From a virus (taxonomy: Duplodnaviria; Heunggongvirae; Uroviricota; Caudoviricetes), in IMG/VR virus record IMGVR_UViG_2529292908_000005: 14,191 nt of DNA; one strand, 5' to 3'. Under the pieces are notes generated by a model. It made no database searches. It was given only the letters and a program-made list of their open reading frames with translations, and was not told where the DNA came from. Positions 1 to 13,688 of the stretch are shown in pieces. The stretch's first letter is position 1, and every line of letters begins with the position of its first letter. The position numbers were made by a program, and so were the translations under genes.

Positions 1-1578
1 ACCAGCATCATGCTCAAGGTACCAGGGGGCTCTTCCTGTTTCCTTGGTCAGTTTCATTGCCTTACCCCCGCTGGCTCCGGCATCATCCACGATTTGAGCC
101 TTGCCACCTCCGGCAGCCCAACCCTGTGGTGTCAACCGTCCTTCAGACTCAGATGCCCGGTAAGCAAATAGCGTACTCATCGTCGTGGTGTCTGCGGGTG
201 GCGTGGACGGTTTTGATGGTGTATCAGGTGACGGCTTCTCATCCGGTGGTGTCACGGTCTGCCCGCGCATCAGTTCAGCCGTGCGCCCTGCATGGAGCAT
301 AATAGCTGAGGCCAGACGGTCTGAAATGACGCCCCTGCGTGCCCATGAGCTGAAATGGCTGTCACGCTGTGTCGAAACAAAACTGCCCTGGGTTCGGGAT
401 GCTGCACCGTAATACCCGACAGCCACAATATCCGGGTCTTCCGCCGGAGCATTCGTTGGCGTGCTCTGTCCATTCTCATCCGTCAGGAACGGTACAAAGA
501 AAATTTTCTGTGCTTCCTTGCCTTTGTAGCCACCGTATACTGCCTCATATTTATCGGTGCCAGCGTTTTTCCAGTAATACGTGGTATCACCGCAAATCCA
601 CGGCACCGTGGTGGCATTTCCACTCACGCACTGCGCAGCAAGCGGAGCCAGGTCAGTTCTGAACTGCTGAACCATGGTCGTGAATAAACTATTATGCTGC
701 TGGCTTCCTGAGGCAAGGTCTGCCTCTCCCTGCATCCAGACCACAGCCAGAAGTTTGTTTTTCGGGTTTTTCGCCAGCGCGACTTTGGTGCGGCTTACCA
801 GGTCCTGATACAGAGGTTTACCGGCCCCCCAGCGTGAAGAATCAGCGGAAGCACCGCTGGCCTCACTGAATGAGCCGTCGGCTCCAGTGGTGAATGCTGA
901 CCCGCCACGACAACAGGGCACCAGAAGTATCCCGGCATTCTGTGGGATATAGGGAAGCAGTTTTTGGCAATATGCAACCCCTGACCGACAGTCCCGTACT
1001 GGCCTTTTGCCAGATCAGCTTTCGGGTGGTTTATCCCGCTCATATCCTGAACATCATGCAGGCAGTGGTCCGCCGGAATGATGTCGTTGTATGTACACGA
1101 CGTACCGTTGGGCGTTACCGTACTGCGGCGTGCCAGTTGCTTAATGCGTGGGTCCGGGCGGTCAAACGAATCCGGTAACGGCAGCCCCTCGCCGTAGGCC
1201 ATGCCATTTGACTGACCCGCGAGAATGACAACAAAGTAATATTCCGGCTCTGAACTGCTGCCATTCGTGCTACCGGAAGGCCCGGCGTTATCCGGTGCAT
1301 TCCAGTCGGAGGGCGTGAGCGTTCCGGCCACGTCAGATGTGATTGGAATGATGCCAGTCACGCCTGAACTGGTGATTTCTGCACTGGGATTACCGGATAC
1401 CGGCATTACCCATAATGGCTCTTTCGTGCTGAAGCGGATCACGCAGTCTGCGAAGGTGATCCCCCTTTATTACCCGAAGGGCGGAAGGGCTTTCAATAAA
1501 TGCCACCGTGCCACCGGCAACCTTGACTGAAAACTCTCCGGGCATGGCGGAGAGCATTTTCCACTTGGAGTCTGACAT
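1..1578 (-). pseudogene. nanS: NanS-p-like sialate 9-O-acetylesterase (SASA/SGNH domain) with extra N- and C-terminal regions; frame broken twice; 3' end runs off the window
   Basis: Minus-strand translation gives ...YYFVVILAGQSNGMAYGEGLP... (GQSN motif, ORF 795..1442) and, in the frame open from 960 to 1, ...LLPYIPQNAGILLVPCCRGGSAF...AVVWMQGEADL...GYYGA...; this matches NanS/YjhS-type esterases as recalled. N-terminal piece is ORF 1390..1578. Frame switches sit at C5 (1461-1465) and T5 (961-965). Pro/Thr-rich linker then a further domain towards position 1. Confidence 0.6.
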
Positions 1579-1663
1579 CGTCTTTTCTGCCTGTTTCTGA
1601 ATTAAACAGAGTCAGAATAGCGACCGCTGAAAAATATGTGTTTTGCGGAAATTCAAAAAAGCG

Positions 1664-2236
1664 TCACGGTACTTTTGGTGACGGAGCTGGTGAGGCAGGA
1701 AAATAACGATAAAGGGTGGAAAGGCCAATATCAAATATCAGTGCGATTTGTTTACGGGACTCGCCATTAGCCAGCAAACGGGCGATTTGCTCCCGCTCTT
1801 TCTCTGTCAGTTTCTGAGGTCTGCCGCCATGACGCCCCTGAGCACGGGCAGCAGCAAGACCCGCACGTGTACGTTCAATAATGAGTTCCCGCTCCATTTC
1901 CGCCAGCGCGCCCATTATATGGAAAAAGACACGTCCCATGGGAGTGGATGTATCAATATTGTCCGTAATGCTGCGGAAGTTAACGCCGCGTTGCCGGAGT
2001 TCTTCTGTTAAAAGGACAAGGTGCTGCATACTGCGTCCAAGGCGATCCAGTTTCCAGACCAGCAGGGTATCCCCTGGCCGGAGTCGCTTTAATGCGCGTT
2101 TAAGTCCGGGACGCTCCCTTGTCTTACCGCTTATTCTGTCTTCGAAAAACAGCTCACATCCTGCACATTCCAGCGCATTTCTTTGTAGCGCCGTATTCTG
2201 GTCATTTGTTGACACCCTGATATACCCAATCAGCAT
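1664..2236 (-). CDS. gin: Serine-recombinase DNA invertase (Gin/Pin/Hin/Cin family)
   Basis: 190-aa ORF starting MLIGYIRVSTNDQNT, with catalytic-domain pattern and C-terminal HTH ...LSTLYRYFPAS closely resembling Mu Gin as recalled; AAGGAA SD 5 nt upstream of ATG; start lies 66 bp from the left gix-like site. Confidence 0.95.
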   Translation of the reverse strand: MLIGYIRVSTNDQNTALQRNALECAGCELFFEDRISGKTRERPGLKRALKRLRPGDTLLVWKLDRLGRSMQHLVLLTEELRQRGVNFRSITDNIDTSTPMGRVFFHIMGALAEMERELIIERTRAGLAAARAQGRHGGRPQKLTEKEREQIARLLANGESRKQIALIFDIGLSTLYRYFPASPAPSPKVP

Positions 2237-2301
2237 ACGATTTCCTTATTATAAAAAGCCGGAATTGTCGCATGAGGAATAAAACAGAGTTAATCCTGGC
2301 T

Positions 2302-2327
2302 TTCCTGAAAACCTCGGTTTACGGGAA
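2302..2327. other. gix/hix-like 26-bp invertase crossover site (left)
   Basis: TTCCTGAAAACC|TCGGTTTACGGGAA: two inverted half-sites around a central dinucleotide; right half nearly identical to the Mu gix half-site TCGGTTTACAGGAA as recalled. Confidence 0.8.
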
Positions 2328-2687
2328 ACGGTAAACAGGGCGGCGAATGCTCTGCCATCGGACGGCACCGCCGTTGCCGCGAATAGACTCGCCACCCCAA
2401 GAAATATTAATGGGGTTCCCTTTGACGGGACGCAGGACATAAACATCACTTCTGGTATAACACAGCAGGATGCGGATTCCCGATATATCCAGGATATCAG
2501 GCTGGGAGCAGAGAACAGGCAGGTAATGTACGGTGGGGCATATTACTCTGCGTACGGTAATGTTATGGCAGGCCTGCAGATTGACAGTAAAGTTGATGCT
2601 TCAAAACGATTTTATAGCATTCAGACCCCTGCAAAAATTAGTCGGAGGTACATGGATTACGGTATCTCAGTTATAAATAGTCAGTAA
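2313..2687 (+). CDS. Silent alternative tail-fibre C-terminal cassette (Sv'-like); no start codon of its own
   Basis: Frame open from the left crossover site to TAA 2685-2687, encoding [48 protein letters not shown]...YMDYGISVINSQ. The first ~25 residues repeat the peptide encoded across the right site in the expressed fibre gene, so inversion would fuse this cassette to the constant fibre region. Confidence 0.7.
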   Translation, partial: LGLRETVNRAANALPSDGTAVAANRLATPRNINGVPFDGTQDINITSGITQQDADSRYIQDIRLGAENRQVMYGGAYYSAYGNVMAGLQIDSKVDASKRFYSIQTPAKISRRYMDYGISVINSQ

Positions 2688-2765
2688 ATAATATATTTTA
2701 AAACAGATTTATTTCCAGGAGGATTTTATGGAACTAAAAATATAACCCGTTATTATCCTGAAAAT

Positions 2766-3248
2766 ATGCCATATGGTAATAATGTTCAGTATTTCCAGAG
2801 TGAAGATGGTAAGGATTTCTACGAATCCCTGTCATTATTCACCAAAAAATATAAACTTTGCATAACACCTGACAGCGGCGTTATCTGCTCAATATCACAG
2901 GACGCCTCGGCGCTGTATCCTGCGGGGTTTTCTGTGGTTGAGGTCGATGAACTCCCTGAAGGCACGGATATTTCAGGAAACTGGAAGTTTGATAATGGCA
3001 TAATCTCCCGTATTCCGGTTAACTACGCAAGAAAACTGGAAGCAATGCGCCAGTCATATCTTAATCAGGCATATGAAAAAATTAATGACTGGAGAACGGA
3101 GCTACAACTGGGCACCATCAGCGATGAAGACAGAGCAGCACTTACCCAATGGATGGCATACATCAGTCAGGTGAAGAAAATGGAACTACCCGCCATTAAA
3201 ACAGAAGCTGAATTTAACGCCATTAAATGGCCTGAGCAGCCACAGTAA
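2766..3248 (+). CDS. tfa: Tail-fibre assembly protein (Tfa / Mu U-like chaperone)
   Basis: 160-aa ORF ...YFQSEDGKDFYE...ALYPAGFSVVEVDELPEG...GNWKFDNGIISR...KWPEQPQ, the characteristic Tfa pattern. ATG 2766 has no SD; a stronger start (AGGAGG + ATG 2728) lies upstream in another frame (see findings). Confidence 0.85.
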   Translation: MPYGNNVQYFQSEDGKDFYESLSLFTKKYKLCITPDSGVICSISQDASALYPAGFSVVEVDELPEGTDISGNWKFDNGIISRIPVNYARKLEAMRQSYLNQAYEKINDWRTELQLGTISDEDRAALTQWMAYISQVKKMELPAIKTEAEFNAIKWPEQPQ

Positions 3249-3251
3249 TAA

Positions 3252-3271
3252 AGAAGGCCGGAAGGCCTTCT
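3252..3271. terminator. Hairpin between convergent tfa and fibre genes (probable bidirectional terminator)
   Basis: AGAAGGCC-GGAA-GGCCTTCT: perfect 8-bp GC-rich stem with 4-nt loop, 3 nt after the tfa stop; T-rich run (TTATTACTG) on the minus-strand side. Confidence 0.5.
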
Positions 3272-3385
3272 GAATATCATTATATACTTGCAGCCGTCAC
3301 CCATGCTCCATTTAACAGATACTGCAACGGCCGGTAATACACGCCGCCGACGTTATCTGCCGTATTCTTACCGACATCCTGTACT

Positions 3386-4162
3386 TTAATTCCGGTAAGA
3401 ACATTGCCGCCCCCCCAGATTCAGATCCCAGCTTTCCCATGTTCCGGGCATATGTGCGGTCACCGACCCCAGTCTTATGGCGGTTACTGTTCCTGATGAG
3501 ATAGTGATATCCTGCGTCCCGTCAAAGGGAACACCATTAATTGTGTGGGCATTTGCCAGCCTGTTCGCGGCAACGGCGGTGCCGTCCGATGGCAGGGCAT
3601 TCGCCGCCCTGTTTACCGTTTCCCGTAAACCGACGTTATCGATAAAAGCCCCTTTATCCGGAATGTCTGCGCCGTTCTGCTCCCTGCGCAGGTAACGGTT
3701 ATCACCTTCGCTTTTGCTGTAAACATCCAGATTATTACGGGCGGTTCCCTTATTCTCCAGGTCGGCGAGATTCTGATCCTTCGCCAGGGCATTAACGTCA
3801 CCGGGACCAAGACTGTTTTTTGTGGCAAGCGTCCCCAGACCAAGATAACCACGGGCCAGACGCTGGGCCTCCGCACCGGCATCAGCAATTTCTTTCAGGT
3901 TATTTTTCCGGGAAAAGGCATTCGCAGCGATAATGGCTTTAATGGACAGCGTAAGCTGGTTTAACTGCGCCTTATCCGGCTGAATACTGGCTTCAGCCAG
4001 AATATTCAGCAGTTCGGCCTGGAGAATATTCAGCCAGTCCTGACCAATCCAGCTGATACCTTTTTGTCCGTCACCTTCGGTAAACCAGGTGGTGGTATTA
4101 CTCTGCGCCGGTGCCAGCGCAGGCATATTCGCCACGCCGGAATTATTATCAACATGAAACAT
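3386..4162 (-). CDS. Tail fibre protein (Mu S / P2 H-like): constant N-terminal part plus variable C-terminus inside the invertible segment; C-terminus probably truncated by a frameshift
   Basis: 258-aa ORF with ...[48 protein letters not shown]... crossing the right gix-like site; ATG overlaps the upstream gene stop (TAATG). A C7 tract at 3410-3416 is followed by a stop 8 codons later, while the -1 frame stays open to 3280. Confidence 0.85.
3620..3645. other. gix/hix-like 26-bp invertase crossover site (right, inverted)
   Basis: Reverse complement reads TTATCGATAACG|TCGGTTTACGGGAA; same TCGGTTTACGGGAA half-site as the left site and TTATC...AAC outer half as in Mu gix as recalled; lies inside the fibre coding sequence (encodes FIDNVGLRE). 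Confidence 0.8.
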
Positions 4163-4722
4163 TAAATAGTCTCCTCTTCATGGCTGTTTGCATACACGTA
4201 AATAAACGTCTGCCATGCAGGCTTATAACGGTTCAGAATACATTCCAGCGCACCGCCTTCATAAATACGCAGCGGCGTGAGAATATCATCCAGCACATTC
4301 ATATTCCGGTAGCCGGTTTCACTGTTAATCGTGACAATACTGACCCACTGCGAATCCGGTGAGGGCTGAATGTCAATCTGATAACCAAACTCCGCCGCAA
4401 ACCGGATATAAAATTCACGGTTCAGCGAGGGCTTCATCCGGTATTTATTTCCGGCATAACGCTGTCGCTCCGTGAGGGTGGCTCCGGCCATATCACACTC
4501 GGGAAGCCCGAGATAACGCTCCCAGTCTTCCAGCAGCAGGCGCGACGTGTCAGGGAAACGCTCGGCAAGCAGCTGTTTACCCGTCCAGGATACACGCGCT
4601 GTCGAATGACTGAGGCCCAGACATAATGATGCCAGTACGGATGACGGACGCTTGTCCCATGCCAGCCCGTCAGGCAGTAACTGCAACAGGGCGCGCTGAT
4701 GCGGGGTCAGGGTTACAGCCAT
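4162..4722 (-). CDS. Phage tail protein, DUF2313 / Mu gp48 / YmfQ-like
   Basis: 186-aa ORF in the conserved slot between baseplate J and tail fibre; start overlaps the J stop region and its stop overlaps the fibre start; composition and position match the gp48/YmfQ family as recalled. Confidence 0.75.
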
Positions 4723-5795
4723 GTGATTTCTCCTACCGTCAGCAGCTCACTGTCTCCCGCCTGAACTGACGTCAGCGGACTGCGCACTTCAAAATCCTCC
4801 AGATTTTTCACCCCTGCCACCGCCCGCCAGAAAGACGACGGCAGAACCAGACCGCCGGGCCGGGATTCGTTATACAACAGGTCGGTCAGCGCCTGTTTTA
4901 CGGCCGCCTGATTCTCCGGTGTTTTCGGGATGATCCTGATGCTGAAGGGCACCGGCTTATTGGTCAGTTTAAACACGGTCACCGTCGGCCCCAGAGGCTG
5001 TCCGACAGGCTGGCCGGTCGCCGGATCATCATGACTGCGGATATAATCCGCCACCCGCTGAACATCACCGTCACCGGGGAAAATATCCGGGTTATTATCC
5101 TGAACAAACGTTACCCCCACGCTGCCCGCCTGCGGCCATTCCGGGCGGCACCATGCCCGCGTCACGCCCGGCACTTCACGCGCCCAGCGTTCAAAATCAT
5201 ACTGCGTGCCGCCGGACGGTGGATTCTGCACCCGGAAAACCAGACGGGAAAGCAGCTCCGGCACGGTTTCCACATCCGCACCACCGGTGATCCCCGTTCC
5301 GGTCACCGTGGACGTCTGGTTGATCCCCGCCTGCGGTGTGATAAATGTCAGTTTTGTCCCTGCCGGGGCATTCCCCGCACGACCGGCACTTTCGGCTTCC
5401 ACACTGACATTCAGCGTACCGGCCTTACCGGTCAGGGAGGTGGTGATACGGTAAACCACGCCATCACTTCGCTGGAGAAGCACACCTTCCTTGATCCCCG
5501 CATCCGTGGTCAGCATCAGCTGAACCGGCCCGTCCCCCCGAGAGGCAGGCTTACGCATGACGCCCCAGAATGCACAGTGTTTCAGCAGTTCGGCTTCATC
5601 GGCTTCGGTCGGGATGATCTGACGCGCAATCCAGGCCAGATGCTCATGCTCCTGAGCAGATAACCCTGCCTGAGCGTAAGCAATGGCATTCAGGGTGGTT
5701 TCATTCACACCCGGCTGCGAGCCGGGCAGGCGCTGGCTGATATCCTGCTGTGTCTGCGTGATTAACTGTGCCAGCGGTAAAGGCTGATAAGGCAT
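4713..5795 (-). CDS. Baseplate J-like protein (Mu gp47 / P2 gpJ family)
   Basis: ORF-track frame 4713..5837 starts at TTG; a better start is ATG 5793-5795 (MPYQPLPLAQ...) with a GGG-containing SD. Translation shows the J-family layout (...ADEAELLKH.AFWGV.RK.A..A.G...GGADVE...) recalled from P2 J. Confidence 0.85.
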   Translation of the reverse strand: MPYQPLPLAQLITQTQQDISQRLPGSQPGVNETTLNAIAYAQAGLSAQEHEHLAWIARQIIPTEADEAELLKHCAFWGVMRKPASRGDGPVQLMLTTDAGIKEGVLLQRSDGVVYRITTSLTGKAGTLNVSVEAESAGRAGNAPAGTKLTFITPQAGINQTSTVTGTGITGGADVETVPELLSRLVFRVQNPPSGGTQYDFERWAREVPGVTRAWCRPEWPQAGSVGVTFVQDNNPDIFPGDGDVQRVADYIRSHDDPATGQPVGQPLGPTVTVFKLTNKPVPFSIRIIPKTPENQAAVKQALTDLLYNESRPGGLVLPSSFWRAVAGVKNLEDFEVRSPLTSVQAGDSELLTVGEITWL

Positions 5796-5954
5796 TAACC
5801 CTGTTCGATAAGGGGCTGATTTCCCGTGAGGAGGCAATACATATTATCAATCTCGCTCAAAAAAACTCTACCCCGGAAAATGCAGAAGATATCCAGGATG
5901 GCTCATATATTAATACCGACTGGCATTTCGACAATCTCCGGGCCTGTATGGGGA

Positions 5955-6242
5955 TTACCGCTGAAAAAGATTAAAAATTTTTGCATAATGTTCAGATGTA
6001 AGAATTGCTGAACCATCAACACCGAGCCTGCGGCGAACGTATTCCTCGCGGGCTATTTTATTATCCAGAGATACAGCATCCTTAATCAGGTTAATCTCCC
6101 GCTCCATTATCAAAAGGGCTTCTCTGGCTGCAAGATTTTCTTTTATCGCATATTCGATAATGTCCCGCATACGTTCAAGCATGCCGATTTTAGCCAGTTC
6201 TTCGTCGATAGATTTAGGCGCAAATTTGATTTCTTTTTCCAT
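5955..6242 (-). CDS. Hypothetical protein, predicted all-helical, encoded in AT-rich DNA
   Basis: ORF-track 5955..6257 (GTG start); preferred start ATG 6240-6242 (MEKEIKF...) with GAGGA SD 8 nt upstream, 1 nt after the stop of the upstream zinc-ribbon ORF; markedly lower GC than neighbours. Confidence 0.5.
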   Translation of the reverse strand: MEKEIKFAPKSIDEELAKIGMLERMRDIIEYAIKENLAAREALLIMEREINLIKDAVSLDNKIAREEYVRRRLGVDGSAILTSEHYAKIFNLFQR

Positions 6243-6243
6243 A

Positions 6244-6387
6244 TTATTCATCCTCACAATTTATACATGCAGTGTCGTCGCCCATATCGCAGTGGTTACA
6301 TTTTATCTCACCACAATGTGGGCACTCTTTCAGATACTCCGGGTCCTCATTTCCACAGGTGGGACATTCAACAATTTGCTCATCCAT
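6244..6387 (-). CDS. Small 4xCxxC zinc-ribbon protein (47 aa), not in the ORF track
   Basis: ATG 6385-6387 to TAA 6244-6246 translates MDEQIVECPTCGNEDPEYLKECPHCGEIKCNHCDMGDDTACINCEDE: four CxxC pairs in 47 residues; AGGGGA SD 7 nt upstream; start overlaps the stop of ORF 6380..6712 (ATGGATGA). Confidence 0.5.
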   Translation of the reverse strand: MDEQIVECPTCGNEDPEYLKECPHCGEIKCNHCDMGDDTACINCEDE

Positions 6388-6712
6388 TATGTATCCCCTG
6401 TAATTCCGGCAAGGCCGAAAGATGGCACCAGTGCGTCACCTGTCCGTCCTCATCTTCAAGGCAGGCTCCGGTTTCTTCATCAATAAAAAAGCCTTCATAC
6501 CCCATATGGCCGATGCGCAGTTCCTGTTGGTCACCATACTGAACAATCAGCACGACAGCCTCCATATCAGGCGGAAATGCGTCATCCAGTGAATGCCAGG
6601 GATAACCGCGCAAATCCCCGAAATAAACGCCGGTCAGCGTTCCGCCACAGAGCGGCATTCCGGCGGCACACACAAGAGGTTCATCTGATTCAACAAATAA
6701 GGTCGTTATCAT
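6380..6712 (-). CDS. Hypothetical protein (110 aa)
   Basis: ORF with ATGA start/stop overlap to the upstream gene at 6709-6712; acidic C-terminal half; no family recognised. Confidence 0.55.
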   Translation of the reverse strand: MITTLFVESDEPLVCAAGMPLCGGTLTGVYFGDLRGYPWHSLDDAFPPDMEAVVLIVQYGDQQELRIGHMGYEGFFIDEETGACLEDEDGQVTHWCHLSALPELQGIHNG

Positions 6713-7260
6713 GGCGTTAACTCCCGTAATACAGCGTCCTCGGCAGTCCGGCGACGGTAATAAACTGCGTGAGCAGAATGTTCAGATATTCCAAACTTTT
6801 CGCCAATTTCCCGGAATGACAGACGGCGTGGGTAATCGGAATCACGCAGCGCACGTATAAGACGTACATCATCATCAGATATGCGCGTGCCGGGGCGTAA
6901 CTCTCCGCACTTTGTTAATCCAGCACCAATCATTCCTGCCCGACATCTGACAGAATCTTTATTACGTCCGAGATATTCTCCCATTTGCTGGCAGGTCATT
7001 GTTCTGGCATTTTTTCGAATAAACTTATCTTCATCAGGTGTAAATCTTGGGTGTTTATATTTCAGTAACTCCGGGTATGAACTGCGCAATACACCAGTCC
7101 GGTTATATACAGCCCAGACAGTTCTTTTTATTCTGGCAGCAATATCCTTAACCGGGGTGGATGAATAAAGCGCAATCAGTAGCGCATCTTCTTCAGGTGT
7201 CCACGCGCGGACATGAGCGGGTGTACGACCTTTTCGCCCCATGGGTTGTAATTTCATCAT
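6709..7260 (-). CDS. Putative DNA-binding protein with tandem Myb/SANT-like HTH repeats
   Basis: 183 aa; repeats ...RAWTPEEDALLIALYS...IAARIKRTVWAVYNRTGVL and ...RFTPDEDKFIRKNARTMTCQQMGEYLGRNKDSVRCRA, plus a third weaker HTH-like segment; strong AGGGGGTGA SD; start 3 nt after the upstream stop. Confidence 0.6.
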   Translation of the reverse strand: MMKLQPMGRKGRTPAHVRAWTPEEDALLIALYSSTPVKDIAARIKRTVWAVYNRTGVLRSSYPELLKYKHPRFTPDEDKFIRKNARTMTCQQMGEYLGRNKDSVRCRAGMIGAGLTKCGELRPGTRISDDDVRLIRALRDSDYPRRLSFREIGEKFGISEHSAHAVYYRRRTAEDAVLRELTP

Positions 7261-7263
7261 GCA

Positions 7264-7779
7264 TCACCCCCTGACTCGCTTTTCAGCAGCATAAAACTCA
7301 TCAGACAGTATTTCGGTCATTTTCTGTTTTGCGGGTTTTACGCCGCACTGAAGGTAAATCACATCGTCAACGCAGAACCACTTCACAGGGCCAAACAGGA
7401 TTGCCGAGAAATCAATACCCAGCCAGAACAACAGCGCATCGGTTCTGGCATACGTGACGGGTGAATATTCACGCCACAGACTGTTCAGTTCATCAGAGGC
7501 AACACGCAGGGTTTTAGGGATACGTGATGTGCGCGGTGTGCAGCTCCAGCCATTCGACGCAGTCGGTTTTCGCCATAAGTCGCGATGAAAAGGATATTTG
7601 TCCTCCGTAAAACGCAGTCCCTTAAAGCAAAATCCACTGATACCGGATACAAATACCGACCGGCACGCAACATTCAGCACGGCCTCAAGGCGTTTTGCCT
7701 CATCCTTAACTTTCTGGCAGTCCTGCTGGTATTTTTGCCACGCAGCCAGCGCGGAAGGGTTTGATGTTTTAAAGAACAT
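7264..7779 (-). CDS. Hypothetical early-region protein (171 aa)
   Basis: ORF whose ATG shares a nucleotide with the upstream stop (TAATG at 7777-7781); no family recognised. Confidence 0.55.
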   Translation of the reverse strand: MFFKTSNPSALAAWQKYQQDCQKVKDEAKRLEAVLNVACRSVFVSGISGFCFKGLRFTEDKYPFHRDLWRKPTASNGWSCTPRTSRIPKTLRVASDELNSLWREYSPVTYARTDALLFWLGIDFSAILFGPVKWFCVDDVIYLQCGVKPAKQKMTEILSDEFYAAEKRVRG

Positions 7780-8312
7780 TACGCCACCTCCGCAGATATC
7801 CCGGCAGGCGCTGCTGTCCGGTCAACAATCAGGTAGCGCAGAACATGTTCAGTGATATTCCAGCCGCTTAAACCGCAGATAATGACGCCCAGGCGTATGT
7901 CGATATACGCCATCACAAACTGGGGCACGCCTTCTTTCATGGCCTGCTCATCAACTTCAGCCACCACATAAACGGTTTCACAGGTCAGAACGCCCTGAGC
8001 AAATTCCCACGCCATCGACGGAATATCATGCCCCTCAATCCATGGCAGGGATTTTCTGAAGCCGCACCACTGAACATCATCAGCCGCAGATTCCTGGCTG
8101 CATTTGCGACGAACCGGCTGCACCGGGCGGGGGCGCGGAATATCATAAAAACCGTTACATTCCGTCAGCACGCCTGCATCAACCGCATCACGCAGAAAAT
8201 AAACCATGGAGGATGGCGGCATATTCATTTTTTCAGCCAGTACACCGCAGGTCAGGCGGCCATAAATACGCAGCCAGTTTTTAACCCCTTCAAGCACTTT
8301 TGCATCAATCAT
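7779..8312 (-). CDS. Hypothetical early-region protein (177 aa)
   Basis: ORF with GGGGAAA SD 7 nt upstream of ATG 8310-8312; first gene after the 145-bp AT-rich gap downstream of gam; no family recognised. Confidence 0.55.
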   Translation of the reverse strand: MIDAKVLEGVKNWLRIYGRLTCGVLAEKMNMPPSSMVYFLRDAVDAGVLTECNGFYDIPRPRPVQPVRRKCSQESAADDVQWCGFRKSLPWIEGHDIPSMAWEFAQGVLTCETVYVVAEVDEQAMKEGVPQFVMAYIDIRLGVIICGLSGWNITEHVLRYLIVDRTAAPAGISAEVA

Positions 8313-8457
8313 GATTTATTTCCCCACCACATTATTAATGACGATATAAACGTATTTCATATTTCTTAACCCTTATTTTCTGTTTTCAGGCGCAAGCAGT
8401 CCCCTGACGCGAGCGCCATAATTAAAATGAAGTGATATTTAATTGATTAATGCGGTG

Positions 8458-8988
8458 TTATTTATTCAGTCCGGCGTCCTGTTCAAAAGGCTCGACATAA
8501 AAACTTTCAGCGCCTTTATTCACCTTGATACCGGCAATGCCTTTCACAGCATCCGGCTCCGCCAGGACGGCTTCCTTGTTCACTTCCTCTTTCGTGCGGA
8601 TGAAACGCTCAAGCCCCATACGGCGCAGCATTTCAATCACACCTTCCACATCACGGCTGACGCTGCATGATGGCGTTCCCAGCCGCCATGACACCGTTCC
8701 GGTGGTCAGATTGGCTGTTTTGGTTTTGCCGCCGTTCGTCAGCTCATCACGGTTGGTTTTGCACCAGTCCTGAATCCCTTTAAAAAGCACTTTGATTTGC
8801 TTTTTAAGATTTTCAATCTGCGGCGTATAACGGGCGGTGATTTCTGCCACTTCGTCATTCATCGCCGTTTCCAGGCGCAGCGCCTCTCGCTGAATATCTC
8901 CCAGGGTGCGGATATCACGGCTGACTTCTTCCCGGGTCTGCGGTGCCGCCTCGGCTGCGGCCTTTAATTTTGTAACGCGTTTAGCCAT
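8458..8988 (-). CDS. gam: Gam-like host-nuclease inhibitor (Mu Gam family, DNA-end binding)
   Basis: 176-aa ORF MAK...DIRTLGDIQREALRLETAMNDEVAEI...DWCKTNRDELTNGGKTKTANLTTGTVSWR...ERFIRTKEEVNKEAVL...EPFEQDAG, co-linear with Mu Gam as recalled; AGGA SD. Confidence 0.9.
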   Translation of the reverse strand: MAKRVTKLKAAAEAAPQTREEVSRDIRTLGDIQREALRLETAMNDEVAEITARYTPQIENLKKQIKVLFKGIQDWCKTNRDELTNGGKTKTANLTTGTVSWRLGTPSCSVSRDVEGVIEMLRRMGLERFIRTKEEVNKEAVLAEPDAVKGIAGIKVNKGAESFYVEPFEQDAGLNK

Positions 8989-8999
8989 TTTGTTTTTCC

Positions 9000-9293
9000 T
9001 TATTGCAGTGTGCCTGATGCTTTATGCACGCGGTGGCGTTTAATGATGGCATCCGCTCCAAAAGACTGTGCAGATGCCTGAAATTCCGCTGAGAGAAACT
9101 GAATAATTGCAGGACTGTGATACTGGAGAATACTTGCATAAACGTCACAGAGTGACGTCGGCCTGTTATCCGTATCACGTTCTGTTTTTACATCCACACC
9201 AATCTTTTCATGCACTTCAACACTGTCATTGCCTGCCGGTTTTTCGTCATGCGAAACATGCTCAAATTCAAAAATAACGCGTACTTTGCTCAT
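9000..9293 (-). CDS. Hypothetical small early protein (paralogue 1 of a tandem pair)
   Basis: ORF-track 9000..9320; preferred start ATG 9291-9293 (MSKVRVIFEFEHV...) with GGGG SD, 4 nt after the upstream gene stop; N-terminus parallels the upstream gene (MSKVVRIIFEYKE...). Confidence 0.55.
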   Translation of the reverse strand: MSKVRVIFEFEHVSHDEKPAGNDSVEVHEKIGVDVKTERDTDNRPTSLCDVYASILQYHSPAIIQFLSAEFQASAQSFGADAIIKRHRVHKASGTLQ

Positions 9294-9297
9294 GGAA

Positions 9298-9570
9298 TTA
9301 CCCCTGCTGATTAAATTCATTACCGTTAATAACCCCGGAAGCCATGCCTCTGTCTTTCATGAATGCACTGGCTTTCATTGCCACAAACTCTGCGAAGTTT
9401 CTGCTTTCTGCCAGCATAACCACCCCAAAAATCATGGCGGGTCCATTATCTTTCTTCTTTATTCCGGTTGAACGTATATCCAGACTTACCCCTCTGTGCG
9501 TGCTGCCATCAGAGTTTTTGCAGATAACATCTTCCTTGTATTCGAAAATAATGCGTACGACTTTACTCAT
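9298..9570 (-). CDS. Hypothetical small early protein (paralogue 2 of a tandem pair)
   Basis: 90-aa ORF MSKVVRIIFEYKEDV...; 4-nt start/stop overlap with the upstream gene. Confidence 0.55.
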   Translation of the reverse strand: MSKVVRIIFEYKEDVICKNSDGSTHRGVSLDIRSTGIKKKDNGPAMIFGVVMLAESRNFAEFVAMKASAFMKDRGMASGVINGNEFNQQG

Positions 9571-9848
9571 CCTCTGGTCCTCGTTCTGTTTGGATAACTG
9601 ACCCGGCGTCTAACCTCACGGCAGAACCGAATCATGGCATTAAAGGCTTCTTCCTCCGTCACCGCTTCCGGTATCCCAGGAACCAGTAGCTGTTCCTGTT
9701 CATCGCGTCCATGACGCGCCATAACCTCAATCACATGCCGTACCGTGGCAGGCTTTCCGGCAACTATCGGCAATGCACCTTCCGGCAGGACGTAACCAAA
9801 CTCAATAAGACCACTCGACCACGCCCATGCAATGAGATTTCGTTTCAC
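9567..9848 (-). CDS. Hypothetical small early protein (93 aa)
   Basis: ORF packed between neighbours in the B-to-gam interval; no family recognised. Confidence 0.5.
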   Translation of the reverse strand: MKRNLIAWAWSSGLIEFGYVLPEGALPIVAGKPATVRHVIEVMARHGRDEQEQLLVPGIPEAVTEEEAFNAMIRFCREVRRRVSYPNRTRTRG

Positions 9849-9849
9849 C

Positions 9850-10116
9850 TCACACCTCCCAGTAAACCGTGCAGCCGCTGATGCGGGTGGCCTTCACACG
9901 GCGGCGCAGGCCGTTGGTCTGTATGGTGATTTCAATTTCACCGGTTCCCTGCACGTTGCCTACCGGCGGCGTGGTTTTCAGTGCAAAACGTTGCGGATAG
10001 CGCTTACTGCGTTCCAGTACCGCACCGGCAAGTTCGGTCAGACGGCGCGCGCTGTTCAGGGAGTCGAATAAATTCATTTTGTTACCGCAGGATTGCATAT
10101 TCATATAACACCTCAT
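9850..10116 (-). CDS. Hypothetical small early protein (start ambiguous: ATG at 10116, 10104, 10098 or 10077)
   Basis: ORF directly following the upstream stop (TAA ATG); several in-frame ATGs, GAGGTG SD-like element before 10104/10098; sits where kil-type genes lie in Mu, but no sequence recognition. Confidence 0.45.
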   Translation of the reverse strand: MRCYMNMQSCGNKMNLFDSLNSARRLTELAGAVLERSKRYPQRFALKTTPPVGNVQGTGEIEITIQTNGLRRRVKATRISGCTVYWEV

Positions 10117-10338
10117 TTAGCTGACTTGTTTCGCACCAACAGAACGGCATATTCCGCTGTAAACTTCTGTCGCACCTTCGCGATCAAGTCCGGCAGATAT
10201 CACCATTCGTGTGCGGTCATTAAATTCAAAAAGTAAATCGCCACATTCTTTATTTTCGGCCAGTGAAATCACCTTCACGTTATCGAAATTAACCAGGTAA
10301 AAGCGTCCGTAAATATCAGGAATATTAAATACCGCCAT
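10117..10338 (-). CDS. Hypothetical small early protein (73 aa)
   Basis: ORF-track 10117..10344 (GTG); ATG 10336-10338 with AGGTG SD 5 nt upstream is preferred; begins 2 nt after the B stop. Confidence 0.5.
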   Translation of the reverse strand: MAVFNIPDIYGRFYLVNFDNVKVISLAENKECGDLLFEFNDRTRMVISAGLDREGATEVYSGICRSVGAKQVS

Positions 10339-10340
10339 AA

Positions 10341-11273
10341 TCACACCTGTGAGAGTAATTCAGGGTTGGTATAAACCTCTTTAAAGGCCGCATTAATATG
10401 TTTTTCTGTCAGCGCCGCGCCTTCACCGCTGGCGGTGAGCCACGCCTGGTTAAGCGTATGTGTCAGAACGCGTAACGCTCCCGGCTTTTCAGCGATAGCC
10501 TGCATGACGGCCAGCTCGGCCTCACCACTGATACCCCATGCCCTGGCAATGGCCAGCACATCCGCCTTTTTGGCCTTGCGAAGTTGTTTTGTACGGGCAA
10601 GACGGCTGAACAGGCGCGATAAATCATCAAAGGCGCGGCGTCCACCTTTAAACAATCCGCGCGGGTTACCAATAAGCACCATCCCGATCCCCGTGGCGTC
10701 CTGAATTGCCCGGAGTTGCTCCAGACCGTCAATACCAAGATGATCCGCCTCATCCACAATCACCAGTCCACGCGTTCCCGTCAGGCGACGGCGGATGGCG
10801 CGGGATAATGCCCCTTTGTTCGCGCGGGTGTAATCAATCCCCAGCGCATCGGCCAGCTCCAGCAGACACTCCGTGACGCTGGAGTGCGCGGGTGACAGGG
10901 TGATCATCCAGGTGTTTGGTTGCTCCTGGCAGTAATTACGGGCAGTGGCCGTTTTACCCACACCCGGTACGCCCACAATAACGTTAATACAGCCCATCAG
11001 GCGAACCGCCTGAAACAGTGCGCGCAGCTCCTGGACTGTCTGAGTTTCCACAAACTGCGGCGGTTCCGGCAGTGCGCTTTGTTTATTCCAGTTCTCATAC
11101 CAGGAGCGCAGGGAAGCAGCCACAGCGGCGTTATCGCCTTTATATTTCCCCTTGCGGAAAGCCGATAATGTGCCGTCGGAAATTCCCGCCTCTCTGGCGA
11201 TGGCATACTGCGTCAGCACGCCGCCATCAATAAGTTCATCAATGGTCTTGATTACATCGTTTATATCGGTCAT
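10341..11273 (-). CDS. B: MuB-like transposition target-capture protein (AAA+ ATPase)
   Basis: 310-aa ORF with Walker A VGVPGVGKTATARNY, ...LVIVDEADHLG..., N-terminal HTH-like region, and co-linearity with Mu B as recalled (...GDN..V...L..W...PEPP.FVETQTV...KPGALR.L...); GAGG SD; directly downstream of the transposase. Confidence 0.92.
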   Translation of the reverse strand: MTDINDVIKTIDELIDGGVLTQYAIAREAGISDGTLSAFRKGKYKGDNAAVAASLRSWYENWNKQSALPEPPQFVETQTVQELRALFQAVRLMGCINVIVGVPGVGKTATARNYCQEQPNTWMITLSPAHSSVTECLLELADALGIDYTRANKGALSRAIRRRLTGTRGLVIVDEADHLGIDGLEQLRAIQDATGIGMVLIGNPRGLFKGGRRAFDDLSRLFSRLARTKQLRKAKKADVLAIARAWGISGEAELAVMQAIAEKPGALRVLTHTLNQAWLTASGEGAALTEKHINAAFKEVYTNPELLSQV

Positions 11274-11312
11274 ATTATTACCTCGCGTTTGTGTAGTTCC
11301 TTTGTTTAATCA

Positions 11313-11348
11313 AATAACCTGAGTCGCCGCTCGGGTTATTTTTTATTT
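11313..11348 (+). terminator. Stem-loop plus T-tract in the A-B intergenic region; reads as an intrinsic terminator on the strand antisense to A/B
   Basis: AATAACCTGAG-TCGCCG-CTCGGGTTATT (11-bp stem with one G-U pair on the plus-strand RNA) followed by TTTTATTT; on the sense (minus) strand the stem has a C-A mismatch and a weaker U-tract. Confidence 0.35.
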
Positions 11349-13438
11349 CAGGCCAGAGGGTCATTTTCTTTTAATTTCGCTTCAAGCAGCTGCAATCCCC
11401 GCTGGAAATTACGCTCGTATTCTTCATCAGGTTCATCGTCAGCGACCGGTTGCTGAACGATCACCGTATTACCCACAGGGCGGTATATATTTTCCAGCCA
11501 CGGCTCCTGTGGCTTGTGCTCCAGCACGTTGACAATCTCATCCTCGGCATCACGGATTTTTTCCTCTGCGCGTTTACGCATGCCTTTAAGGCGCTGCTGC
11601 TGTTTGTGGTATTCCGCGCTGACCGGGAAGGCTTCGCGTTTATTGCCGTCCCATACCGCCTCGCAAATCACGCTGCCATCCGGGCGACGTACGGTAATTC
11701 GTTCGGCATCATGAATGTCATAGCTGATAAGCACCTTACGACCATGCTCGTCACGCAGCTCGGGCGCGTAGTAAATATTATTCAGCCAGCGTATTTCACA
11801 GCGTCTTACAGGGCGTTCCACCATCGGCCGGAACATATCCCGCAGCTCAACATCGGACAGCCATTCAATTTCCGTGTCCTCTTCCGCCAGGCGTTTTTTT
11901 CTGAACTCCGCCGGGCTGTAATGCTTGCCGTTCGGCTTCACCGGTAATTCATCGTGCGGCCGGTTGTTGTACCACTCAACACCATCACGAATGGCATCAA
12001 TCAGTTCAGCCCAGGACGGTAAATCACGCATCGCTGACTGCTGCCGGGCGTTCAGCCGTTTGCCCTGTTGCAGGGCAGTAAATGCCGAGCGTAAATCGCG
12101 GTTGGTTTTGCGTAACGTCTCGCGATCTGCACCTTTCCCGAAATAGGTGCGGTATTTACGGGCTATGCGCATCGGTAATGTGCGGTTAAGCCGTTCGATA
12201 ATGCCTCGTCCCTGCGGATTACCGGCAATCCCGGTCGGGTGATTAATCCCCAGTCGCGGCAGTATCCCCACAACCTCCTTATCCAGGATGTCGGCGGTTT
12301 CCCCGGAGCCGTTATCCGAGTAATACAGAAACGGTTTGCCGTGATGGCGAATGCCGTGCTGTATGGCACCGGCTACGGCGAAAACATTTTCAGCCAGGTC
12401 AAGGCTCCAGCCCACCACAAAGCGCGTGCCACCGTCGATAACAAAGGTCACTTCCGGTGCAAATGGCCGACCGTGAACCGGGTGTGCGCATTTCAGCTTC
12501 ATGCCGTGACCGTCACCAATCCAGACATAATTCACCGGCATTTTTGACCAGTCGCGGCGCGTGAATCCCTCAAGCTGGCGGTATTCACTGCCGGTCACCC
12601 GGCCTTTTTGTTTCACCACTTCCGGCAGTTTCTTCATTGCGCGGCGAATGGTGTCATAAGACGGCATGATATCGAGCATATAAGGCTCATCAGCGTGCCG
12701 GTGCTGCCATTCAGCAACAAAATCCTCGTAAGCCTCGGTCATTGGTCGGCCGTTTGACTGGCGATACTGCGCCAGAAATTCGGGCAGCCAGTTAATATCT
12801 TCGGCTTTTATTTCCTGGCGCTTACCCGGTGCCAGTAAAAGCAGGCGTTCAGCGGCGTTCTGCGCCTTGTTAAAGGCCGCAATCCAGCGTTTCAGCGTGA
12901 TTTCACTTAACGCGCGGCTGTTTCCCTTTTTGGCGTTCGCCGTCTCAACCATTGCCACAATGCGCTCGTCCAGCTGCGAACGTGCCAGGTTGTCAACGAT
13001 AAACCGGATAGCCTTCGCACAGCTGAAACCAGGTTGTTGCGCGACTTTCAGCACCTCGCTGACGATCGCGATTCGTGCATCAGCCACCTGGCGCTGGTTT
13101 TCAGTCAGGGCATTAAGGCGTTCAACCATCAGTTGTGGTGATCCGCGATATGCCTCCACCGCATCAACCACGGCAGGCGAGCGTCTGGCCTTTGTCACCA
13201 CTGGAGCCGGTGATTCATCGACTTTTTGAGTCATCAGTTGCAGGGCGTAGCGTTCACGTAATGCCTGCTGCGTCACTTCAGGTAAACAGTCGATGCTGTA
13301 TTCAGTTGCTTTAGAGCCTGAGCGACGACGGGAACAACAGCTTTTCCCTTGTACGTAACGTTGTAATGCCTGGCGAATACCTTTTGTTGTAGCAGGCATT
13401 CCGGGCGCGCCAATCAGTTCTTTTGCAATGACATACAT
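11348..13438 (-). CDS. A: Mu-type DDE transposase (MuA-like)
   Basis: 696-aa ORF of MuA size, immediately between ner-like and B-like genes; start 1 nt after the ner stop (TGATATG); internal ...YVWIGDGHGMKLKC... core region. Assignment rests mainly on size and conserved ner-A-B synteny. Confidence 0.9.
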   Translation of the reverse strand: MYVIAKELIGAPGMPATTKGIRQALQRYVQGKSCCSRRRSGSKATEYSIDCLPEVTQQALRERYALQLMTQKVDESPAPVVTKARRSPAVVDAVEAYRGSPQLMVERLNALTENQRQVADARIAIVSEVLKVAQQPGFSCAKAIRFIVDNLARSQLDERIVAMVETANAKKGNSRALSEITLKRWIAAFNKAQNAAERLLLLAPGKRQEIKAEDINWLPEFLAQYRQSNGRPMTEAYEDFVAEWQHRHADEPYMLDIMPSYDTIRRAMKKLPEVVKQKGRVTGSEYRQLEGFTRRDWSKMPVNYVWIGDGHGMKLKCAHPVHGRPFAPEVTFVIDGGTRFVVGWSLDLAENVFAVAGAIQHGIRHHGKPFLYYSDNGSGETADILDKEVVGILPRLGINHPTGIAGNPQGRGIIERLNRTLPMRIARKYRTYFGKGADRETLRKTNRDLRSAFTALQQGKRLNARQQSAMRDLPSWAELIDAIRDGVEWYNNRPHDELPVKPNGKHYSPAEFRKKRLAEEDTEIEWLSDVELRDMFRPMVERPVRRCEIRWLNNIYYAPELRDEHGRKVLISYDIHDAERITVRRPDGSVICEAVWDGNKREAFPVSAEYHKQQQRLKGMRKRAEEKIRDAEDEIVNVLEHKPQEPWLENIYRPVGNTVIVQQPVADDEPDEEYERNFQRGLQLLEAKLKENDPLA

Positions 13439-13439
13439 A

Positions 13440-13688
13440 TCATGACGCCTTTCTCATATAGCTCTTAACCTGGTATCGACTGGGCCAGATTTCTTCAGGC
13501 GATACCCCAAGAGCATCAGCAATTATTTGCTGATACGGTCGGCAAGGAGTACGTAATACGCTTTTCAGCGAATCCCTGCTGTAACCAGCCTTTAAAGATA
13601 AAGAGCGCAGTGATAAGCCAGCCATGTGTAAGCGCGCCTTGATGATTTCAGGCGGCCAATCGTGATCTGAAACTTCTCTTCTACTCAT
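13440..13688 (-). CDS. ner: Ner-like DNA-binding regulator (Ner/Nlp family)
   Basis: 82-aa ORF ...DWPPEIIKARL...GLSLRSLSLKAGYSRDSL...QQIIADALGVSPEEIWPSRY..., co-linear with Mu Ner / E. coli Nlp as recalled; first gene of the early operon, divergent from the repressor. Confidence 0.88.
   Translation of the reverse strand: MSRREVSDHDWPPEIIKARLHMAGLSLRSLSLKAGYSRDSLKSVLRTPCRPYQQIIADALGVSPEEIWPSRYQVKSYMRKAS

Follow-up and report, generated by a model that had tools for sequence, protein, structure and literature searches.

A NanS-p-type sialate O-acetylesterase gene with an exchanged N-terminal domain in Mu-like prophages of Escherichia coli

The IMG/VR record IMGVR_UViG_2529292908_000005 (hereafter the window) comprises the opening 14,191 nt of draft contig AIFX01000029.1 of Escherichia coli DEC6C and carries part of a Mu-like prophage, at whose edge a large open gene follows a gene for a DNA invertase of the Gin/Pin family. 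We read this gene as a nanS-p paralogue, present over its 5′ three quarters and residing in a Mu-like prophage, with the lambdoid enzymes' N-terminal domain swapped for a different one, and give this reading a probability of about 0.8. As judged from its sequence, the product is a NanS-p-type, phage-borne sialate O-acetylesterase and thus belongs to a known enzyme family. The finding is modestly new in three respects, namely the Mu-like phage context, a gene module shared with lambdoid late regions and the replacement of the domain DUF1737 by a lineage-restricted N-terminal domain. No account of nanS-p in Mu-like phages, or of the domain DUF6645, was found in the literature available to the analysis.

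The coding sequence starts at an ATG (1576-1578, minus strand) directly downstream of the invertase gene and continues past window position 1, in agreement with the original prediction of a large multi-domain gene running off this end. The missing part amounts to 158 C-terminal codons of a 684-codon gene and, since the window begins at the contig start, is beyond recovery from the DEC6C assembly. Intact genes with 99.8% DNA identity are available in the prophages of strains FORC_069 (L001:15527-17581) and HH35 (L006:5490-7544); the domain coordinates and profile matches given here refer to this intact 684-residue allele (WP_001284083/WP_001284084) and not to the window copy. At least 20 complete E. 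coli genomes carry the intact allele, and the cluster of intact sequences has 599 members. Its residue map follows the predicted order of N-terminal region, linker, esterase core, Pro/Thr-rich linker and C-terminal domain (Table 1).

The family assignment is carried by the agreement of a Pfam profile, two structures and three catalytic motifs. Residues 117-312 score 51.3 bits with SASA (PF03629), for which the curated cutoff is 24.8 (E=1.5e-13); the profile search places the core inside the SASA/SGNH esterases, as had been proposed from the sequence, and not outside them. Residues 110-428 match the structure of the chromosomal NanS/YjhS (3PT5; phmmer, E=1.8e-117), residues 469-683 that of the C-terminal domain of phi24B NanS-p (6YP6; E=1e-96), residues 533-649 the Pfam family DUF6645 (E=4e-67) and the intact allele as such phrog_143 (E=1.9e-296). 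Block I (GQSN, residues 122-125; window 1206-1217, minus strand) aligns to the GQSN of 3PT5, with Ser124 corresponding to the nucleophilic serine of NanS. Block III (MQGE, residues 283-286; QGE at window 724-732, minus strand) and the histidine block (RDSH, residues 406-409, with His409; window 355-366, minus strand), which aligns to RSSH of 3PT5, follow downstream, and all three of GQSN, QGE and RDSH lie inside the window. The QGE block is specific to SASA, where it replaces GxND and positions the oxyanion glutamine (PMC9487903), while the catalytic histidine block of NanS and NanS-p has been described elsewhere (PMC10462455). Four aromatic residues (Y554, Y559, Y584 and F654), at positions proposed for sugar binding in the phi24B C-terminal domain, are conserved in the intact allele according to the 6YP6 alignment; together with the remainder of this domain, they fall past the contig end.

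The protein is a close relative of both the chromosomal and the prophage-encoded enzymes. Its core is approximately 65% identical to chromosomal NanS (YjhS, 3PT5) over 319 residues; NanS is a single domain of approximately 326 residues belonging to the nan regulon, whereas the phage protein has an additional domain at either end as well as linkers and, in the same comparison, is without a recognisable signal sequence. In 3PT5, the serine of GQSN and the histidine of RxSH align at chain residues 30 and 312, which we take to be Ser19 and His301 of the published numbering, in agreement with the 11-residue offset of the alignment. The NanS-p proteins of Shiga toxin (Stx) and other lambdoid phages (933W L0105/z1466; phi24B vb_24B_21, i.e. 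gp84) have the SASA core and the DUF6645 C-terminal domain in common with the Mu-like protein, and in some lambdoid alleles the core is up to 93% and the C-terminal domain 91-93% identical. Lambdoid NanS-p likewise possess two flexible linkers, and their genes are followed by those for DUF1378 and DUF826 (PMC10462455). The differences lie in the N-terminus, which in lambdoid NanS-p is DUF1737 (a helix and three strands) and in the Mu-like protein an unrelated, predicted all-beta domain of approximately 90 residues; in the position of the gene, which lambdoid phages place between Q/stx and holin S and the Mu-like ones between gin and com-mom; and in the host element, a transposable Mu-like myovirus instead of a lambdoid phage. 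The window copy is in addition truncated and frameshifted relative to lambdoid NanS-p.

The exchanged N-terminal domain (residues 1-92) has no match in Pfam, NCBIfam or the named PHROG families, and DUF1737 (PF08410), which lambdoid homologues carry, is absent from the Mu-type protein even at E<=0.1; identity to the lambdoid N-terminal domain is 26-28% over forced columns. Run exhaustively over 1.84 billion cluster representatives, phmmer found nothing beyond fragments of the same gene, a single homologue from Salmonella and a low-complexity match (P0127) that is regarded as spurious. Word-indexed searches with the domain yielded fragments only, and no match was added by scanning 185,579 species, each represented by a single genome. 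The homologue from Salmonella enterica (30% identity) combines the N-terminal domain with a Pro/Thr linker and a GQSN esterase, and its gene follows the invertase of a Mu-like prophage in the order tail genes, invertase, esterase. In a second E. coli lineage (lineage B), the identity of the N-terminal domain is close to 60%, with 62% across residues 1-92. Among 5426 complete E. coli genomes, 32 encode the domain (28 of type A and four of type B), and overall its occurrence is restricted to E. coli, Shigella and Salmonella, where it belongs to Mu-like prophages. An AlphaFold model built from a four-sequence alignment is all-beta and moderately confident, with a predicted local distance difference test score (pLDDT) of 71-89 for residues 1-80; a whole-protein, single-sequence model (mean pLDDT 33) was not used.

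The boundary of the swap relative to DUF1737-type NanS-p coincides with linker 1 in the alignment, and the two sides of it behave differently. The N-terminal domain is 98-100% conserved among Mu-type alleles, while their esterase bodies range from 81 to 99%; lambdoid esterase bodies, at 84-93%, fall inside this Mu-type range, and linker 2 is 100% identical to that of one lambdoid allele. In phi24B, the DUF1737 of gp84 (NanS-p) decorates the capsid as a hexameric anchor, and the esterase is cleaved away from it, such that the N-terminal domain alone stays on the capsid (bioRxiv 10.64898/2026.04.10.717836). By analogy, we infer that the Mu-type domain may be an alternative docking or targeting module suited to this phage type.

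The surroundings of the gene beyond the contig end were judged from relatives, as the window contig ends before the region in question. The HH35 prophage is a complete Mu-like element of 38.6 kb inserted in a diguanylate cyclase gene, and reads c, ner, MuA, MuB, Gam, Mor, lysis, head, tail, fibre, invertible segment and gin. After gin come NanS-p, DUF1378, DUF826, a small open reading frame (ORF), Com (PF10122, 2e-12) and, at the prophage end, a protein of 245 amino acids (aa) that is Mom (PF25680, E=2.4e-77). The order fibre, (gin), nanS-p, DUF1378, DUF826, com, mom, prophage end recurs in all six complete-genome loci, namely HH35, FORC_069 (in elfC), JE86-ST02 (citF; without gin), M18 (hsdR), STEC299 and 2012EL-2448 (hofC), which occupy six different chromosomal sites, as expected for a transposing phage. 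Near-identical prophages share 99.7-99.8% DNA identity with the window element. Of 34 IMG/VR contigs encoding the N-terminal domain, 25 keep this gene order as far as Com and Mom or a C5 methylase, seven end too soon to judge and two are joined to lambdoid sequence. Lineage B (LC727881), a Mu-like phage inserted in Stx phages, has the order gin, a 680-aa NanS-p-like protein (67% identical), DUF1378, DUF826, Com and C5 cytosine methylase.

The original prediction had placed the esterase in the slot that com-mom fills in Mu and mcrA in e14. Instead, with com and mom (or com and a C5 methylase) still downstream in the relatives, the esterase module has been added between gin and com and replaces neither. 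The right ends of Mu (gin, com, mom) and e14 (pin, mcrA) likewise consist of an invertase for the tail-fibre segment followed by same-strand accessory genes, and com and mom stand at the extreme right end of the complete relatives as they do in Mu; the difference from Mu is a block of approximately 3.5 kb (nanS-p, DUF1378, DUF826 and the small ORF) inserted between gin and com. In part of the Mu-like prophages, com is followed by a gene for a 350-aa C5 cytosine DNA methylase, which takes the place of Mom (L002 2796-3845; also L029, L035 and L041). The truly variable DNA-modification slot is the position after com, occupied by either Mom or the C5 methylase.

The description of the gene as cargo of the kind known from lambdoid prophages of enterohaemorrhagic E. 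coli (EHEC) stands for the esterase body, DUF1378 and DUF826, which are common to lambdoid late regions, but not for the N-terminal domain, which differs and is confined to Mu-like prophages. The closest DUF1737-type homologue lies in a lambdoid prophage (L007) with the order Q, methylase, NanS-p (DUF1737), DUF1378, DUF826, holin, lysozyme, Rz and terminase; its DUF1378 and DUF826 are 69% and 56% identical, respectively, to the Mu-like versions. nanS-p is always followed by DUF1378 (approximately 60 aa, with a single hydrophobic segment at the N-terminus) and DUF826, in Mu-like and lambdoid elements alike, and this constant company across phage types suggests a functional link with the esterase. 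A DUF1737-type NanS-p homologue was also observed after the lysis genes of the P2-like phage vB_EcoM-569R5 (Peduoviridae; L008 1-1251). The esterase is thereby found in at least three temperate phage types, i.e. lambdoid, P2-like and Mu-like. Two IMG/VR contigs, L012 (754-8233) and L017, pass from a Mu-like gin and an N-domain-type nanS-p into a lambdoid DUF1378 (58% identity) and further downstream into P21-type holin S, DUF1327, lysozyme, Rz and terminase Nu1, with no DUF826, com or mom. These hybrid joints fit either recombination between prophages through the shared nanS-p body or misassembly.

Taken together with the characterised enzymes, a working mechanism can be proposed. The enzyme would take 9-O-acetyl (and 7/8-O-acetyl) groups off sialic acids by SASA-type SGNH catalysis, with Ser124 as the putative nucleophile and His409 as the putative base, as extrapolated from NanS, and with an oxyanion hole formed by the glutamine of GQSN and held by the QGE block. 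The lectin-like jelly-roll of DUF6645 at the C-terminus would serve glycan targeting. The gene leads a three-gene module, together with DUF826 and DUF1378 as a predicted small membrane protein, at the right end of the phage; the Mu-like version has retained the exchangeable esterase and lectin body, which still recombines with lambdoid alleles, and given up the DUF1737 capsid anchor for its own beta domain. With no signal peptide visible, the enzyme would probably act after lysis or on the virion. Carried further, Mu-like phages may possess a "mucus enzyme" of their own, in which a small beta-barrel docks the esterase on the Mu-type virion or a phage-specific partner, nanS-p-DUF1378-DUF826 being a portable cassette that phages of different morphotypes take up by way of exchangeable adaptors at the N-terminus, and Mu-like and lambdoid prophages being connected by homologous recombination within the shared body; this joint picture is tentative, and we offer it as speculation.

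Several points weigh against the interpretation given so far. Esterase activity of this allele is extrapolated from identity values of approximately 65% (NanS) and up to approximately 93% (lambdoid DUF1737-type alleles). The docking role of the N-terminal domain would hold by analogy only, and fold searches with its model gave weak cupin-like matches only. In addition, the occurrence of DUF1737-type NanS-p in a P2-like myovirus indicates that DUF1737 does not belong to a single capsid type and makes the logic of one anchor per phage type less compelling. A promoter and terminator scan of window positions 1-2800 returned no more than shuffled sequence would, with none in the spacer between gin and nanS-p. 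Part of this spacer is conserved from lineage to lineage, and the gin-less variant has kept it; transcription by read-through from gin or from an activator-dependent late promoter is possible. Further, the gene is broken by three deletions that recur identically in a second haplotype, and the window prophage is also without 21 kb of middle and late genes, as would fit a decaying element.

These last two points bear on the strongest alternative, namely a true pseudogene, functionless in DEC6C, within a Mu-like remnant that is decaying and has undergone an internal deletion. The original prediction had treated the gene as intact; in the window, however, it is not a single ORF, since three 1-nt homopolymer deletions break the frame (Table 1) and three frame changes are needed for translation. 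The public annotation breaks it into the short ORFs ECDEC6C_0002 and _0003. Window 1-4578 equals L046 read as its reverse complement. Relative to FORC_069 and HH35, the gene differs by two substitutions and the three deletions, and window 1-5797 differs from HH35 by 8 substitutions and 6 single-base homopolymer indels, the latter all within 1-3410, with the three outside the esterase falling in the neighbouring fibre, tfa and Sv' genes. The Logan contig SRR15989091_6127 (L047; matching window 595-2229) has the same three nanS-p deletions plus a fourth in a C-run near window 825, together with 12 substitutions in gin and, relative to HH35, zero in nanS-p. The recurrence in this independent contig could mean a real, shared pseudogene allele, or else runs that are prone to slippage, and differing combinations of frameshifts at the same runs were seen in other database fragments. 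Indels confined to single-base homopolymer changes, indel-to-substitution ratios in the esterase gene of 3:2 (window) and 4:0 (SRR15989091_6127), which are abnormal for a mutation spectrum, and clustering at a contig start in multi-copy sequence are better explained by platform errors than by decay. The 599 members of the intact cluster likewise favour an artefact. As far as sequence can tell, sequencing or assembly error is clearly the likelier cause of the three deletions, although true decay keeps an appreciable share.

The window is not one continuous late region, as the baseplate J gene (4716-5795, minus strand) abuts the Mu early region directly. Window 5796-13304 corresponds to the early region of the HH35 prophage (MuA, MuB, Gam, Ner; 98.2% identity), and 21.1 kb of that prophage are absent, from Mor through gp46 (lysis, head, sheath, tube, tape measure and gp43-46). 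The junction at 5796/5797, 2 nt upstream of the baseplate-J start, shows 2 bp of microhomology and occurs in none of the 5426 complete E. coli genomes; it is either a real deletion, which would take out Mor, lysis, head and most tail genes and so favour a remnant, or an assembly chimera, as its absence from complete genomes may indicate. A functionless remnant is, on balance, unlikely, though it is the most serious competitor of the preferred interpretation, i.e. a nanS-p paralogue with a swapped N-terminal domain that is intact in the relatives.

The second alternative concerns the role of the enzyme, which might mainly be a virion-associated, receptor-modifying one, taking O-acetyl groups off glycans of the bacterial surface (O-antigen, K1-type polysialic acid) to aid adsorption instead of feeding the lysogen from host mucin. 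The gene adjoins the fibre genes, the invertible segment and gin, i.e. a host-range module; the N-terminal domain is swapped by phage type; NanS-p of phi24B has been found in the virion (bioRxiv 10.64898/2026.04.10.717836); and such a role for NanS-p has been raised in a review (PMC8065619). Nevertheless, characterised NanS-p act on free Neu5,9Ac2 and mucin O-glycans and confer a growth advantage (PMC8065619), and the phi24B esterase does not stay on the capsid once cleaved; such a role for this allele is improbable. Very improbable, finally, and largely refuted is a recent lambdoid/EHEC cargo filling the post-invertase slot instead of com-mom or mcrA: the gene does directly follow the invertase, its body comes close to lambdoid DUF1737-type NanS-p and the window stops before the downstream genes become visible, but Com and Mom (or the C5 methylase) are downstream in every relative long enough, the arrangement and N-terminal domain are kept in lineages whose N-terminal domains are only 60% and 30% identical, including Salmonella, and base composition, considered as a sign of recent acquisition, shows no contrast (54.9% guanine plus cytosine in the esterase gene, 53.8% in the prophage overall). 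An arrangement kept across three diverged Mu-like lineages (E. coli A, E. coli B and Salmonella) is, by this argument, old in Mu-like phages.

The remaining features of the window are those of a Mu-like prophage (Table 1). Two pairs of inverted repeats (2307-2392/3555-3640, 93% complementary; 2406-2455/3492-3541, 84%) flank approximately 1.1 kb comprising a tail-fibre assembly gene (2766-3248, plus strand, Caudo_TAP) together with a fibre C-terminal fragment that has no promoter; these features mark the Gin-invertible host-range segment, in which the alternative fibre end and the chaperone presently point away from the fibre gene. The 696-aa ORF was at first taken as the tape measure, a reading ruled out by its Pfam match to the MuA transposase. 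In the relatives, RefSeq annotates a "tRNA-OTHER" in the interval from the virion morphogenesis gene to the minor head protein gene (FORC_069 L001 34268-34303; HH35 L006 24226-24305), a region that is not in the window.

Table 1. Coordinates of the esterase gene, its parts and other features (window positions unless a record is named)
Feature	Position	Strand	Remarks
nanS-p-like sialate O-acetylesterase gene	1..1578	minus	codons 1-526 of 684; open at window end
N-terminal domain	1305..1578	minus	residues 1-92; non-DUF1737, predicted all-beta; contains two frameshift sites
Linker 1	1248..1304	minus	residues 93-111; Ser-, Gly- and Asn-rich; pLDDT low past residue 82
SASA/SGNH esterase core	286..1247	minus	residues 112-432
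Linker 2	178..285	minus	residues 433-468; Pro- and Thr-rich (translation, alignment)
DUF6645 lectin-like C-terminal domain, first 58 residues (469-526)	1..177	minus	6YP6 alignment
Spacer between gin and nanS-p	1579..1663	minus	85 bp
Gin/Pin-family serine invertase	1664..2236	minus	Pfam Resolvase 1.6e-51 and HTH_7 on the identical FORC_069 (L001) protein
Frameshift site 1	1485..1486		AA, against AAA in intact alleles; codon 32
Frameshift site 2	1461..1465		C5, against C6 in intact alleles; codon 39/40
Frameshift site 3	961..965		T5, against T6 in intact alleles; codon 206/207
Indel	2603		A3 to A4 relative to FORC_069 and HH35; frame shift in silent fibre C-terminal fragment
Indel	2735		A6 to A5 relative to FORC_069 and HH35; tail-fibre assembly gene start disrupted, ORF begins at 2766 instead
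Indel	3410		C6 to C7 relative to FORC_069 and HH35; fibre gene stops early at 3386, 258 aa against 293
Gam	8461-8988		Pfam
MuB	10344-11273		Pfam
MuA transposase	11351-13438		Pfam; 696-aa ORF at 11348-13438
Ner-like	13443-13688		Pfam
DUF1378 and DUF826 genes, FORC_069	L001 15200-15382 and 14910-15164		
DUF1378 and DUF826 genes, lambdoid prophage	L007 9090-9597		

For annotation, the slot model is corrected in that com-mom is retained, and the draft contig should be flagged for homopolymer frameshifts and a possibly chimeric or deleted prophage. The swapping of the N-terminal module while the body recombines amounts to a natural experiment on the function of the N-terminal domain, and the steady linkage of DUF1378 and DUF826 suggests that these two small proteins work with the esterase. 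NanS-p is otherwise discussed almost only as a fitness and virulence accessory of lambdoid and Stx phages; the presence of the enzyme body in Mu-like prophages as well, in approximately 0.6% of complete E. coli genomes and in Shigella and Salmonella, broadens the possible sources of sialic-acid de-O-acetylation capacity.

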